This document shows positions 57,613 through 62,892 of a stretch of DNA of 64,000 nt, piece by piece. The position numbers were made by a program, and so were the translations under genes. A model generated the notes under the pieces. It made no database searches, was not told the DNA's origin, and saw only the letters and a list, made by a program, of their open reading frames with translations. Origin of the DNA: Escherichia phage ECO07P2; the sequence record OP172785; one strand, given 5' to 3'. Position 1 is the first letter of the stretch; the number at the start of each line of letters is the position of its first letter.

Positions 57613-58293
57613 TTATTTTAATGTTACGAAAGAAGAGTTGCGTGTTTCACGAATTAGAACTGATCCGTCACGGTTAATGTAGTAAATTAAGCTAAATAAA
57701 GTTTGATGTGCCGACGCGTGTTCAAAACTAGTTGGGTGAGATTTCCAATCCGGAGTTTCAGCAATCCATTGATAAATCCACCAAGGAACAGTACAGAATC
57801 CTGGATTTTTTCCAATCAGCTGAAGATTCGGACTAAAGTTTTCCGGAAGAGTAAATACAGACGGCTTTTCAGATTCAATAATCTCAGCTACGGCCTGCTC
57901 GAATTTTTCTTCAACAAAAGGAGTATCTTCAATCAAAACATCGGTATTTTCAGGAATTTTATCCGTTTCTACTACTTCAATTTTAATGTCAGATTTAACC
58001 GGAGAATCAATCAGAAGTGCTGCCTCTGGATTGACTTCTTCATCGTCATATTTTAACCCCTCTGCAGCATCAGCAGCATTGATTAAGTCTTTAATAGATA
58101 ACCCATCAGTCTCTGGCATAGGTTCACTAGCGAGCTTCTGGAGGGCTTCTTCAATATCAGCAACGATATTATCAAAAGATTTATTCTTTTTGACCTTTAT
58201 ACCAAACTGTTCAGCATATTCAGCTAATTTAGCCTTAGCTTCTTTATTATCATCAAGAGCCTTCAGCTCTGCAATATAATCTTTATCTATCAT
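57613..58293 (-). CDS. inh: inhibitor of prohead protease gp21 (Inh)
   Basis: 226 aa, same length and position as T4 Inh. Confidence 0.75.
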   Translation of the reverse strand: MIDKDYIAELKALDDNKEAKAKLAEYAEQFGIKVKKNKSFDNIVADIEEALQKLASEPMPETDGLSIKDLINAADAAEGLKYDDEEVNPEAALLIDSPVKSDIKIEVVETDKIPENTDVLIEDTPFVEEKFEQAVAEIIESEKPSVFTLPENFSPNLQLIGKNPGFCTVPWWIYQWIAETPDWKSHPTSFEHASAHQTLFSLIYYINRDGSVLIRETRNSSFVTLK

Positions 58294-58306
58294 AATATTT
58301 CCTCAG

Positions 58307-58314
58307 TATAAATA
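58307..58314 (+). promoter_or_regulatory. late promoter TATAAATA upstream of uvsW
   Basis: exact TATAAATA 30 nt upstream of uvsW ATG. Confidence 0.5.
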
Positions 58315-58343
58315 TAGATATATTTATTACATGGTATTTAGAC

Positions 58344-59855
58344 ATGACTGACATTAAAGTACATTTTTATGATTTTAGTCACGTGAGAATTGATTGTGAA
58401 GAAAGTACATTTCATGAACTCCGTGATTTCTTTAGCTTTGAAGCTGATGGGTATCGTTTTAATCCGAAATACAAGTATGGTCACTGGGATGGACGAATCC
58501 GTCTATTAGATTATAATCGCCTTCTTCCGTTTGGTTTAGTCGGGCAAATTAAAAAGTTCTGTGATAACTTTGGCTATAAAGCCTGGATTGACCCACAGAT
58601 TAACGAAAAAGAAGAATTATCAAGAAAAGATTTTGATGAATGGCTTTCTAAGTTAGAAATCTATTCAGGAAATAAAAGAATTGAACCGCACTGGTATCAA
58701 AAAGATGCAGTGTTCGAAGGATTAGTTAATCGTCGTAGAATTCTTAATCTTCCAACATCCGCAGGTAAATCATTAATTCAAGCTTTGCTTGCACGTTATT
58801 ATTTGGAAAATTATGAAGGTAAAATTCTTATCATTGTTCCAACAACTTCTCTGACAACTCAGATGGCTGATGACTTTGTTGACTATCGTTTATTCAGTCA
58901 TGCAATGATAAAGAAAATCGGTGGTGGAGCATCAAAAGATGATAAATATAAAAATGATGCACCAGTCGTTGTTGGTACATGGCAAACTGTAGTAAAACAA
59001 CCAAAAGAATGGTTCTCACAGTTTGGAATGATGATGAACGATGAATGCCATCTTGCCACAGGAAAAAGTATTTCATCTATCATATCAGGTTTAAATAACT
59101 GCATGTTTAAATTCGGTCTATCAGGTTCATTACGTGATGGCAAAGCTAATATCATGCAGTATGTTGGAATGTTTGGTGAAATATTTAAGCCAGTAACGAC
59201 TTCTAAATTAATGGAAGATGGACAAGTAACTGAGTTAAAAATTAATAGTATTTTTCTTCGCTATCCTGATGAGTTCACTACTAAATTAAAGGGAAAAACT
59301 TACCAAGAAGAAATAAAAATTATTACTGGGCTCAGTAAAAGAAATAAATGGATCGCTAAATTAGCTATTAAACTTGCGCAAAAAGATGAAAATGCTTTTG
59401 TCATGTTTAAACATGTATCACATGGTAAAGCTATTTTCGATTTAATTAAAAATGAATACGATAAAGTTTATTACGTATCAGGGGAAGTTGATACTGAAAC
59501 GCGCAATGTAATGAAAACCTTAGCTGAAAACGGTAAAGGAATAATTATAGTAGCTAGTTATGGTGTATTTTCTACTGGTATTTCAGTTAAAAATCTGCAT
59601 CACGTTGTTTTAGCACACGGTGTTAAATCTAAAATTATTGTATTGCAAACAATAGGTCGCGTATTACGTAAGCATGGTTCTAAAACAATCGCAACAGTCT
59701 GGGACCTCATAGATGATTGCGGTGTTAAGCCAAAATCTGCTAATACGAAAAAGAAATACGTTCATTTGAACTATCTTTTAAAACACGGCATTGATCGTAT
59801 TCAGCGCTACGCAGATGAAAAATTTAATTACGTAATGAAAACAGTTAATTTATAA
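58344..59855 (+). CDS. uvsW: UvsW DNA/RNA helicase (SF2)
   Basis: 503 aa; Walker A LPTSAGKS, DECH box MMNDECHL and helicase C motifs. Confidence 0.9.
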   Translation: MTDIKVHFYDFSHVRIDCEESTFHELRDFFSFEADGYRFNPKYKYGHWDGRIRLLDYNRLLPFGLVGQIKKFCDNFGYKAWIDPQINEKEELSRKDFDEWLSKLEIYSGNKRIEPHWYQKDAVFEGLVNRRRILNLPTSAGKSLIQALLARYYLENYEGKILIIVPTTSLTTQMADDFVDYRLFSHAMIKKIGGGASKDDKYKNDAPVVVGTWQTVVKQPKEWFSQFGMMMNDECHLATGKSISSIISGLNNCMFKFGLSGSLRDGKANIMQYVGMFGEIFKPVTTSKLMEDGQVTELKINSIFLRYPDEFTTKLKGKTYQEEIKIITGLSKRNKWIAKLAIKLAQKDENAFVMFKHVSHGKAIFDLIKNEYDKVYYVSGEVDTETRNVMKTLAENGKGIIIVASYGVFSTGISVKNLHHVVLAHGVKSKIIVLQTIGRVLRKHGSKTIATVWDLIDDCGVKPKSANTKKKYVHLNYLLKHGIDRIQRYADEKFNYVMKTVNL

Positions 59856-59869
59856 GGGCTTCGGCCCTT
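59854..59869 (+). other. UUCG hairpin between uvsW and uvsW.1
   Basis: AAGGGC-UUCG-GCCCUU followed by GGAG SD of uvsW.1. Confidence 0.45.
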
Positions 59870-60111
59870 TGGAGAAAAAGATGTTACTAGAATTTAAACA
59901 ATTTCTTTATGAAGCTTCTATTGATGAATTTATGGGTAAAATTGCCTCTTGCCAAACATTAGAAGGTCTAGAAGAACTTGAAGCTTATTATAAGAAAAGA
60001 GTTAAAGAAACTGAATTAAAAGATACTGATGACATCTCTGTGAGAGATGCTTTGGCAGGAAAAAGAGCTGAATTAGAAGATTCAGACGATGAAGTAGAAG
60101 AAAGCTTTTAA
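59869..60111 (+). CDS. uvsW.1: UvsW.1 small acidic protein
   Basis: 80 aa ORF immediately after uvsW with its own SD. Confidence 0.7.
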   Translation: MEKKMLLEFKQFLYEASIDEFMGKIASCQTLEGLEELEAYYKKRVKETELKDTDDISVRDALAGKRAELEDSDDEVEESF

Positions 60112-60113
60112 AT

Positions 60114-60145
60114 TAAAAAAGGCCCAACCAAAAAAGGAAGGGCCA
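60114..60145 (-). terminator. rho-independent terminator (minus strand) at convergent gene ends
   Basis: minus RNA GGCCC-14 nt loop-GGGCC followed by U6. Confidence 0.5.
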
Positions 60146-60167: not shown

Positions 60168-60335
60168 CTATAGCAAAAGTTGTGTTTCATTTAATTGTTC
60201 TTCCGAACTTTCTGAAACTGGTAGTTCTTTAATGTAATTATAACAAGGCCCAGGATGTACAGGACCTTTGTCTGTTTCAACAACCAATGCAGAATCGATT
60301 GGAGTTTTACAGACAACACAAATCTTATCTGACAT
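60168..60335 (-). CDS. small Cys-containing protein (uvsY.-2 position), 55 aa, absent from ORF track
   Basis: ATG 60335 with GAGGAG SD; hand translation MSDKICVVCKTPIDSALVVETDKGPVHPGPCYNY...; CxxC plus C suggests zinc ribbon. Confidence 0.45.
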   Translation of the reverse strand: MSDKICVVCKTPIDSALVVETDKGPVHPGPCYNYIKELPVSESSEEQLNETQLLL

Positions 60336-60363
60336 GATTGTCTCCTCTAAATTATATATCTAT

Positions 60364-60588
60364 TTATATAACTCTCATATGCATATCAATGCCCATATCT
60401 TTAGAATAAAAATATTCATCGAGATATCCGGCAAATTTTCCTTTAATATAAAGTACATCTTCACCGCATGGGTGGTCGGCCAGGATACGAATATCCTGAC
60501 GCTTGAGATTATACTTTTTCATTAAGAATTGAATTTCCGTTTCGAATTCTTCTTCATAATTAAAAGCATCATCAATGCTATATTTCAT
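60364..60588 (-). CDS. hypothetical protein (uvsY.-1 position)
   Basis: 74 aa ORF overlapping uvsY stop. Confidence 0.55.
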   Translation of the reverse strand: MKYSIDDAFNYEEEFETEIQFLMKKYNLKRQDIRILADHPCGEDVLYIKGKFAGYLDEYFYSKDMGIDMHMRVI

Positions 60589-61001
60589 TATTTTCCAGCC
60601 TCAAATGCTCGCATGTCTTGAATATGCTTAATAGCAAATCCACGTGATTTTATAGCATCAAGAGCTCCGCTACAGAAATCCAATAAAATTCCCCAATATT
60701 GTAATGAAGTATCAACTTTTAAAACATCCTTATCAGCTGATAGAACTGTCTTCATTTCTGATTTTTCATAACGATCCATACTAAATTCATCACCATCTCC
60801 TCGTCCCGAGTAGTAGTCTAATTTAGCTTTAAGAGCAACTTTTTTCTGTGCTTCAATTCTAAGCATTTCCTTTTTAATACTTGAATGCTTATTGAGCCAT
60901 TTACTATATAACATCACATTATTAGCTGCTTCATACTGTAATTTAGTCGAATCTATAAACACATCTTTCTTCAATTCTTCTTGAAGATCTTCTAATTTCA
61001 T
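60588..61001 (-). CDS. uvsY: recombination mediator UvsY
   Basis: 137 aa as in T4 UvsY. Confidence 0.9.
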   Translation of the reverse strand: MKLEDLQEELKKDVFIDSTKLQYEAANNVMLYSKWLNKHSSIKKEMLRIEAQKKVALKAKLDYYSGRGDGDEFSMDRYEKSEMKTVLSADKDVLKVDTSLQYWGILLDFCSGALDAIKSRGFAIKHIQDMRAFEAGK

Positions 61002-61067: not shown

Positions 61068-61466
61068 TTATACTCTGTTACTGGAAGCCAGTTGCAATTT
61101 TATCTGCTCAATATCATCAGGGTTATCGATGACCGAAAAGCGTATTTCTACTATCAGAGTGTAATCATCATAAACTGGTATTACATTAACTGCTAATTTA
61201 TCAATACGTGGCTCGTAGTTTCTTACTGCGCTTTCAATGTTACGCTCAACAGTATCAGCAGTAAGAGGAGTCATATTCTCAAAAAGCTGATCAGATAAAT
61301 CACATCCAAATTCTGGGTCAAATGGTCTTGACCCTTTTCTGGTTGTAATAATTCCCAAAAGGCTATTTTTAATTGACCTTAATCCAAGAGATCTAGAAAC
61401 GTCTTTGTCCCAATCCATTTTCATTTCCGGGTCAATGTCAGAATAAAGCTTATTAATATTTGCCAT
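61068..61466 (-). CDS. 25: baseplate wedge protein gp25
   Basis: 132 aa as in T4; lysozyme-like fold protein. Confidence 0.9.
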   Translation of the reverse strand: MANINKLYSDIDPEMKMDWDKDVSRSLGLRSIKNSLLGIITTRKGSRPFDPEFGCDLSDQLFENMTPLTADTVERNIESAVRNYEPRIDKLAVNVIPVYDDYTLIVEIRFSVIDNPDDIEQIKLQLASSNRV

Positions 61467-62092
61467 TACAATAGCTCAAAGAATTCTTTGAGTCCTCTTA
61501 TTACATGAGCGTGAGATTTTCCACACTCTGGACATTTAATTGGAACAGCCAAATAAACAGTAGGCTTTAAAAGCATATCTTTTATAGCTACAATATCTGA
61601 CTCTGTGATGATAGAATATAAATCTTCCAACTCTTTTTCATTTAAGTCTTCAATTGGAATGCTTTCGCCGTTAGCATGAATCGTTTCTATACATGATACT
61701 ATCATGTGGGCTATATTTTTATCATCAAAAATTTTAGGGTATCGGAATTTAATTTTAATGTCACCCAGTGTATACCAGAGGTCTTCTGGTGCATCTATTT
61801 GTGCATGTAATAGATTTATATGGGTTGGTATTTCAGTTCCACAGGTGCACTTCCAGGAGTTTTCGTGATTAACTTCTCCAAGAGAATGCGCCCATAAATG
61901 AATCAACAGTAGCTCTGATTCTTGACGGTTTAAATCTTTTGCATTTGTGCATTCTTTGATTAGCTTTTTAACGATCTCTTCTACTGAACCGTTCTTTTTA
62001 GCAGTAATAAGTTCTAGATATTCTTTAAGAGTAAATGCGCGACAATTGATTATTTTAGAACCAACTCTCACATCAAATTTGTATTCATACAT
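61466..62092 (-). CDS. 26: baseplate hub protein gp26
   Basis: 208 aa as in T4. Confidence 0.85.
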
Positions 62093-62142: not shown

Positions 62143-62892
62143 ATGGCAAACATTATTCGTTGTAAATTACCAGATGGTGTTCATCGTTTTAAACCATTTA
62201 CGGTAGAAGATTATCGAGATTTTTTGTTAGTTCGAAACGATATAGAACATCGGTCACCACAAGAACAAAAAGAAATAATTACTGATTTAATTGATGATTA
62301 TTTTGGAGACTATCCGAAGACTTGGCAACCATTTATATTTTTGCAGGTATTTGTAGGGTCAATAGGTAAAACTAAAGTACCAGTCACATTCGTATGTCCA
62401 AAATGTAAAAAAGAAAAGACAGTTCCATTTGAAATATATCAAAAAGAATTAAAGGAACCTGTTTTTGATGTAGCTAATGTTAAAATTAAATTAAAGTTTC
62501 CTTCTGAGTTTTATGAAAATAAAGCAAAGATGATTACTGAAAATATTCATTCTGTTCAAGTAGATGAAACATGGTATGATTGGAAGGAAATTAGTGAATC
62601 AAGTCAAATAGAACTTGTTGATGCCATCGAGATAGAAACATTAGAAAAAATTCTCGATGCAATGAATCCTATTAATTTAACATTGCATATGTCCTGCTGT
62701 GACAAGTATGTAAAAAAATACACTGATATAGTAGATGTGTTTAAGCTATTAGTTAACCCAGATGAAATATTTACTTTTTATCAAATTAATCACACGCTCG
62801 TAAAAAGTAATTATAGCTTAAATTCAATAATGAAAATGATTCCTGCCGAGCGCGGATTCGTATTAAAACTGATTGAGAAGGATAAACAATAA
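62143..62892 (+). CDS. 51: baseplate hub assembly protein gp51
   Basis: 249 aa as in T4. Confidence 0.85.

Follow-up and report, generated by a model that had tools for sequence, protein, structure and literature searches.

Does the short, cysteine-containing reading frame downstream of uvsY in Escherichia phage ECO07P2 encode a protein and, if so, what might that protein do? The locus lies within a stretch of 64,000 nucleotides (sequence record OP172785), here called the window, and the neighbouring genes mark it as part of the uvsW-uvsY region of a T4-type phage. A preliminary description had proposed a 55-codon gene between positions 60168 and 60335 that the automatic ORF track had missed. 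The frame is indeed present there on the minus strand, running from an ATG at 60335-60333 to a TAG at 60170-60168 (55 codons plus the stop codon), and its product is MSDKICVVCKTPIDSALVVETDKGPVHPGPCYNYIKELPVSESSEEQLNETQLLL. At 55 amino acids (aa) it falls below the 60-aa cut-off of the track, which is the sole reason for its absence.

The product is 100% identical to the uvsY.-2 protein of phage T4 (NP_049797.1, UniProt Q00778), which the T4 reference entry (uvsY.-2, T4p185, 114496-114663) labels “hypothetical protein”. It matches the Pfam family DUF2685 (PF10886) with 119 bits against a cut-off of 25 (E=9.3e-35), over residues 3-55 of the protein and positions 1-55 of the 55-position model, and the same family is matched by all 51 aligned members. 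It also matches PHROG 1043, a family of unknown function. Identity with the T4 protein and the shared position between uvsY and the convergent uvsW.1 and uvsW establish orthology. The 55-codon frame is the catalogued T4 gene uvsY.-2/DUF2685, which encodes a conserved, expressed small protein, very probably a zinc finger.

Earlier records already cover the gene, its family, its terminator, its listing in an omics time course and its effect on fitness. In most related genomes it is annotated, under labels such as “uvsY.-2”, “DUF2685 domain-containing protein”, “UvsY.2 family protein” and “putative 6.1 kDa protein”. The sequence-only call was therefore a correct call of a real small gene, a long-annotated T4 ORF, and no new element is added. 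New here are the naming of His27 as a fourth candidate zinc ligand, the reassignment of the fold from zinc ribbon to treble clef, and the definition of a conserved C-terminal motif in the uvsY.-2 family. The amino acid sequence, length, genomic position and terminator of uvsY.-2 are the same in T4 as in the window phage, while the spacer between uvsY.-1 and uvsY.-2 is 26 nt in T4 versus 28 nt here, with a few bases differing. Compared with several Tequatrovirus genomes, a 1.3-kb stretch is 99.2% identical. The features of the locus are collected in the table.

Table. Positions of uvsY.-2, its signals and its neighbours in the window
Feature	Position	Strand	Basis or remark
uvsY.-2 coding sequence, Pfam DUF2685	60168..60335	-	ORF list, Pfam, T4 identity, dN/dS
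Predicted single-zinc treble-clef finger, residues 1-38	60222..60335	-	candidate ligands C6, C9, H27, C31
Codon of candidate ligand C6	60320-60318	-	
Codon of candidate ligand C9	60311-60309	-	
Codon of candidate ligand H27	60257-60255	-	
Codon of candidate ligand C31	60245-60243	-	
Acidic tail, residues 39-55	60171..60221	-	C-terminally anchored motif, low-confidence prediction
Shine-Dalgarno GAGGAG	60342..60347	-	read from sequence; 6-nt spacer (ACAATC) to ATG
TATAAATA, T4 late-promoter consensus box	60361..60368	-	25 nt upstream of ATG
Predicted intrinsic terminator, convergent junction with uvsW.1	60115..60144	-	hairpin + U6, fold
uvsY.-1 (74 aa, unknown function), upstream neighbour	60364..60588	-	phrog_1541
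uvsY recombination mediator, first of same-strand cluster	60588..61001	-	Pfam UvsY, E=9.8e-53
uvsW.1 (76 aa from ATG), convergent neighbour	59881..60111	+	Pfam UvsW-1, E=1.7e-30
uvsW helicase (503 aa)	58344..59855	+	Pfam UvsW_N, ResIII, DEAD, Helicase_C

Since numerous spurious ORFs of 30-117 aa overlap this AT-rich region, a 55-codon ORF taken alone is not significant. Such short ORFs are frequent around uvsY.-2, as would be expected if the frame had arisen by chance in AT-rich DNA and the region were merely a 3′ UTR with its terminator. Conservation was assessed in 52 copies, comprising 46 IMG/VR loci, five GenBank stretches and the window. The reading frame is intact in all 52 loci, which hold 42 distinct coding sequences and 34 distinct proteins, and in every lineage the product is 53-58 aa long, the size of a stand-alone protein of about 50-60 aa. 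The median dN/dS is 0.175 (Nei-Gojobori, 286 pairs with 0.05 < dS < 1.5), and nine pairs show synonymous differences only. Together, the intact frames, the distinct coding sequences and the dN/dS place the ORF far beyond chance. Frame conservation in related phages, which had been named as a check, is thereby confirmed, and these comparisons of coding sequences show that uvsY.-2 is protein-coding and under purifying selection. The Pfam match, the listing of the T4 protein in a proteome time course and a phenotype complemented in trans (both described below) likewise speak against the non-gene reading, which is already refuted and whose probability is practically nil.

A tblastn search with uvsY.-2 returned at least 1,251 phage records, the most distant at about 41% identity, from phages of Escherichia, Shigella, Klebsiella, Enterobacter, Yersinia, Salmonella, Acinetobacter, Aeromonas, Vibrio and others. 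The position of the gene is shared among T4-like phages that infect enterobacteria, Aeromonas, Vibrio and Acinetobacter, further family members occur in Pseudomonas and Morganella phages, and uvsY.-2 is kept across the examined T4-like phages that infect Proteobacteria. Counted by organism name, Synechococcus phages have 73 UvsY records and none among the uvsY.-2 matches. The figure of 1,251 is an underestimate, given the diverged copies in Cronobacter phage GAP161 and Aeromonas phage Aeh1. In the RB43-like GAP161, the gene GAP161_214 (L169, 2916-3098) encodes a diverged 60-aa uvsY.-2 with the tail ...LNEVQMLL and is described in its own record as similar to RB16 UvsY.-2; in Aeh1 the diverged copy lies directly after UvsY. 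GAP161_214 probably escaped tblastn from the T4 query, and the family is probably wider in Straboviridae than the 1,251 records.

A profile search run exhaustively over 1.84 billion representative proteins found only 65 clusters, nearly all of them stand-alone proteins of 51-67 aa. Leaving aside one in-frame fusion, the few long matches appear to be repeat proteins or to result from miscalled starts or stops. This fusion (P0102/phrog_26998; L168, 487-867) is 126 aa long and joins an unrelated 72-aa N-terminal segment to a DUF2685 module; its gene occupies the slot flanked by uvsY and uvsW.1. The internal ATG is preceded, at about 7 nt, by an AGGA, so that the short form may also be made. The fusion was considered as a Rosetta-stone clue and set aside: its N-terminal part is unlike uvsY.-1 and has no annotated family, so it gives no clue to a partner. 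Two T4-identical sequences carry Gram-positive labels, “Enterococcus faecalis” P0003 (NCBI) and “Staphylococcus phage SAJK-IND” H86 (MG010123.1, 32 kb). The identities are 98% for uvsY.-2 and 100% for UvsY, and contamination or mislabelling of the records is the probable cause.

The gene order gp25-uvsY-(uvsY.-1)-uvsY.-2 facing uvsW.1-uvsW is found in nearly all 52 copies, and in the window the baseplate genes 25, 26 and 51 lie beyond uvsY. The gene uvsY.-1 was detected upstream of uvsY.-2 in only 13 of the 52 copies, the window included. Several GenBank records name uvsY.-1 “putative baseplate wedge subunit”, a name for which no support was found; its only other match, to the MvaT/MvaU silencers, was far below threshold (E=0.004, 17 bits against a cut-off of 75). 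On the opposite strand, the automatic ORF list starts uvsW.1 at a TTG at 59869, and a near-identical relative has it annotated as a 231-nt CDS.

The preliminary description had reported a strong GAGGAG ribosome-binding site 7 nt before the ATG, and it is present, with the last G of the element 7 nt before the A of the ATG. A Shine-Dalgarno-like element is found 4-18 nt upstream of the start in 48 of 51 distinct upstream regions of relatives. A short way further upstream, overlapping the stop codon of uvsY.-1 (60364-60366), stands the box TATAAATA, which is the T4 late-promoter consensus. With 23 copies in the window against 9.9 ± 3.1 expected, the box is enriched, and uvsW, gene 26 and gene 51 each have one some 25-30 nt ahead of their start. 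The exact box recurs in 15 of the 51 distinct related upstream regions, and an exact or first-base-mismatch box ([A/T/G]ATAAATA) in 36. It is likely, judging from this motif, that uvsY.-2 has a putative late promoter of its own.

A terminator following the gene had also been proposed, and its prediction holds. The hairpin has the layout GGCCCUUCC-U6-GGUUGGGCC (60144-60121) and is followed by U6 at 60120-60115, and the 68-nt stretch that contains it folds with -16.9 kcal/mol (z = -2.65 versus shuffles). A simple terminator scan made no call at the 3′ end of uvsY.-2, apparently owing to an internal loop in the stem. A GC hairpin with a T-run is found in 33 of 42 distinct downstream regions, with nine different stem sequences; the structure is thus kept while the sequence changes, as for a conserved Rho-independent terminator. 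On the plus strand the hairpin forms as well, but AAAAC and not a U-run comes after it, and in this phage it therefore seems better suited to ending the uvsY.-2 transcript than that of uvsW.1. Nolan et al. (PMC1524935) predicted a bidirectional terminator between uvsW.1 and the converging gene that is conserved in T4 and five other genomes, and a T4 terminator for uvsY.-2 is listed in another paper.

Expression and a phenotype of uvsY.-2 have been reported in T4. A transcriptome and proteome time course places uvsY.-2 (T4p185, Q00778) in the class “middle-RNA_late-Protein” (PMC9697503, supplement). This class means that the protein itself is listed in the proteome time course, which answers the proposal that proteomics be used as a check. 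A CRISPRi-ART study rated uvsY.-2 “Semi-Fit” (pooled score 1.12; near 2.2 for single guides) and its neighbours Not Fit (uvsY 0.09, uvsY.-1 0.05, uvsW -0.10). The knock-down caused a modest fitness defect in T4 that was rescued in trans by an sfGFP-linker-uvsY.-2 construct. Published fitness effects are known for few other T4 genes without an assigned function. A literature search on uvsY.-2 and DUF2685 found no paper that assigns it a function.

What kind of protein uvsY.-2 is can be read in part from its conserved residues. The preliminary description had pointed to a CxxC and a downstream cysteine, and suggested a small zinc-ribbon protein. The cysteines are confirmed as C6, C9 and C31. In 51 diverse sequences all three are invariant, with C6-V-V-C9 forming an N-terminal CxxC knuckle, and a fourth candidate ligand, His27, is at least 90% conserved, giving a candidate site of the form CxxC...HxxxC. 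In two diverged members, P0099 and GAP161_214, His27 is replaced by Cys, a swap that supports its role as a ligand. These residues make it very probable that the product is a small protein that binds zinc. The ribbon part of the suggestion does not stand, since a zinc ribbon needs two knuckles (CxxC ... CxxC) on two β-hairpins and uvsY.-2 is predicted to have one.

There is good support for a treble clef instead, in which residues 1-38 would fold around one zinc held by Cys6, Cys9, His27 and Cys31. In the predicted fold, the second ligand pair comes from the end of a β-hairpin and the first turn of a helix. The CxxC would form the knuckle, His27 would follow the β-hairpin, and Cys31 would start a short helix. 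The closest fold type is the single-zinc C2HC treble clef, represented by the first half of LIM domains and by the C-terminal finger of Vps39 (PDB 6ze9), the latter being the only, and marginal, match in a PDB sequence search. Unlike the LIM and Vps39 fingers, uvsY.-2 has a His-Cys spacing of three residues, stands alone at 55 aa and carries an acidic C-terminal tail. A LIM domain itself consists of two consecutive fingers (C2HC, then C2HC or C4) in about 55 residues; uvsY.-2 has a single finger, and Pfam LIM is matched at most at E=0.026, by one of 51 members. None of the C2HC treble-clef families scored at its family threshold. Searches with uvsY.-2 gave no match in NCBIfam, families of unknown function only in PHROGs, and uncharacterised family members only in BFVD.

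Many treble-clef and ribosomal (eL24) fingers contact nucleic acid, and Lys10, which lies beside the zinc knuckle, is invariant in the 51 sequences. Both would suit a finger that binds nucleic acid as a small transcriptional or translational regulator. However, the whole family is acidic (pI 4.05-5.69, median 4.4; net charge -2 to -9), the finger part has a median net charge of -2, and apart from Lys10 there is no conserved basic patch. A nucleic-acid-binding role is accordingly highly improbable.

The rest of the protein, residues 39-55, is an acidic tail with a median net charge of -4. Its block pLDDT is 58-69, with no predicted secondary structure. Despite this low prediction confidence the tail is conserved. 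It contains an (S/T/N)-E-(S/N) element around E42, which is invariant, and a terminal motif, L48-x-E50-(T/V/I)-(Q/E)-(L/M)-(L/I)-hydrophobic (in short, L-x-E-T/V-Q/E-L-L-hydrophobic), with E50 conserved to at least 90% and with L48, L53 and L54 kept in nearly all copies. In 43 of 51 members the motif stops one residue before the C-terminus. Additions at the N-terminus are tolerated, as seen in the natural 126-aa fusion and in the complementing sfGFP construct. In an acidic mini-protein, a conserved peptide anchored at the C-terminus makes protein docking more plausible than nucleic-acid binding. There is moderate support for the view that uvsY.-2 acts by protein docking through this conserved free C-terminal peptide.

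The name of the gene and its place suggest UvsY as the partner to be considered. The protein could be a dedicated accessory of the UvsY/UvsX mediator that binds UvsY, for example by its acidic tail, and tunes the assembly of the presynaptic filament. Its gene directly follows uvsY, on the same strand, in most loci, and its acidic, Leu-rich C-terminal tail has the same general character as that of gp32 (...DLDDLLNDL). The gp32 tail is reported to bind UvsY. On closer comparison the two tails differ. T4 gp32 ends in ...DDTDLDDLLNDL, with a motif of the form D-L-D-x-L-L-x-x-L/M against L-x-E-T/V-Q-L-L-hydrophobic in uvsY.-2, and the two showed no co-variation in 15 distinct phages in which they were paired. 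In gp32-type tails the motif follows a Ser/Asp-rich linker. Mimicry of the gp32 tail was rejected as a specific model.

The distribution of the gene points away from UvsY as well. According to Sullivan et al. (PMC3037559), Aeromonas phages 44RR, 25 and 31 are without both uvsX and uvsY, yet phage 31 keeps uvsY.-2 next to uvsW.1 and uvsW. An upstream uvsY was also not detected in three of the loci (L004, L046 and L047). The knock-down results in T4 (Semi-Fit for uvsY.-2, Not Fit for uvsY) do not fit a UvsY accessory either. Phage 31, the three loci without uvsY and the stronger effect of the uvsY.-2 knock-down make a dedicated UvsY cofactor quite unlikely, and uvsY.-2 is probably not one, despite its name.

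Acidic and hydrophobic peptides at the extreme C-terminus, as in uvsY.-2, are shared by gp32 and by the proteins that bind the gp45 sliding clamp. In T4 these clamp-binding tails are gp33 ...TLDFLL, gp43 ...SLDFLFG and gp55 ...SLDFLYEAND. Like gp33, uvsY.-2 ends with a polar or acidic residue and three hydrophobic residues at the extreme C-terminus, and its protein is classed as late. Its C-terminus might therefore plug the gp43/gp33/gp55 pocket of gp45 and modulate replication or late transcription by competition. But the clamp-binding tails keep an (S/T)-L-(D/E)-x-hydrophobic-aromatic core across genera, and this core is absent from uvsY.-2, which has no S/T-L-D start and has an aromatic residue among its last 12 aa in only 4 of 51 members; the clamp-binding motif was rejected on this ground. 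The uvsY.-2 tails also do not track changes in gp43. Moreover, gp45 belongs to core replication, while the Synechococcus phages with their 73 UvsY records are missing from the uvsY.-2 matches; a core of 38 genes common to T4-like phages and cyanophages has been described. A clamp ligand is very unlikely. Overall, the evidence here counts against a UvsY-specific, gp32-like or clamp-binding role.

The partner could also be a host protein. The authors of the CRISPRi-ART study raise inhibition of host defence for genes of this kind, and E. coli YacG, a DNA gyrase inhibitor (PDB 4tma, chain I), likewise consists of a zinc finger and a tail. On this model uvsY.-2 would be a host-directed inhibitor or anti-defence factor that neutralises a conserved host protein by a YacG-like architecture. 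The likeness to YacG is an analogy of design only: there is no detectable sequence relationship, and the ligand set and tail motif differ. The match to YacG is no better than that to many unrelated treble-clef fingers, neither YacG nor any other functionally annotated Pfam family is matched above threshold, and membership in the YacG family was rejected. Also against this role, the gene is found at a constant site within a conserved core block and not in a variable region, and its tail is near-invariant in phages of enterobacteria, Aeromonas, Vibrio and Acinetobacter. A host inhibitor of this type is unlikely.

The reading that we favour, with somewhat better than even confidence, is that uvsY.-2 is a 6-kDa acidic, zinc-stabilised docking adaptor whose putative partner is the phage late machinery or a host protein. 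The zinc finger would be a structural scaffold and the acidic tail the working part. The tail peptide, and possibly the finger surface around the invariant Lys10, would dock onto another protein, so that uvsY.-2 would work as a small adaptor or competitor and not as an enzyme or nucleic-acid binder. Transcription would start from upstream promoters in the uvsY region, and probably also from its own TATAAATA late promoter, and would end at the hairpin and U6. As a guess, the partner may be a component conserved in all non-cyanobacterial T4-like phages, most likely from late DNA replication, recombination or late transcription, with UvsW/UvsW.1 as one candidate. No neighbour of uvsY.-2 is more constant than the convergent UvsW/UvsW.1 module, but this proximity is weak evidence for a partner, because synteny of the T4-like core is conserved in general. 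The main alternative partner, also a guess, would be a host protein conserved across gammaproteobacteria.

More speculatively, uvsY.-2 may represent a class of mini-adaptors in which a C2HC finger presents an acidic, Leu-containing tail to a conserved pocket of a machine and so times a late-infection switch. The machine may be one of replication, recombination or transcription, belonging to the phage or to its gammaproteobacterial host. This broader idea is doubtful, but if true it would account for the retention of a 55-aa gene in non-cyanobacterial T4-like phages and for a fitness cost of its knock-down that exceeds the cost seen for uvsY or uvsW. The candidate ligands C6, C9, H27 and C31 and the conserved free C-terminal peptide offer experimental handles.

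Several further differences among related phages were observed in this region. The homing-endonuclease gene segE, which lies upstream of uvsW in T4 (NC_000866, 112057-112674), is absent from the window phage between inh and uvsW (58293-58344). The T4 RefSeq (L005; NC_000866, 112677-114440) still gives uvsW as one 587-aa CDS, whereas the window (58344-60111) and most relatives have uvsW (503 aa) and a separate uvsW.1 (76 aa); Nolan et al. reported these as two genes after resequencing. In some near-identical T4-like contigs (L006, 4481-5173; also L007), uvsW and uvsW.1 are separated by a 230-aa ORF that resembles a homing endonuclease and carries an HNH-type motif (HHIIPRCMGG...NLVELTAEEH). This ORF is missing from the window, which has a 13-bp gap between the two genes at the corresponding place (59855-59869).

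A YqeY/GatB-like ORF (phrog_1460, “tRNA amidotransferase”) lies just upstream of uvsY.-2 in phages of Vibrio (KVP40-like) and Aeromonas (L002, 3413-3826; L004, 2504-2974), and in Aeromonas phage 31 it replaces uvsY. Two baseplate hub genes of the window also encode cysteine motifs that suggest zinc-binding sites of their own, namely the paired motifs CTCG...CPEC in gp26 (61466-62092, minus strand) and CPKC...CC in gp51 (62143-62892, plus strand).
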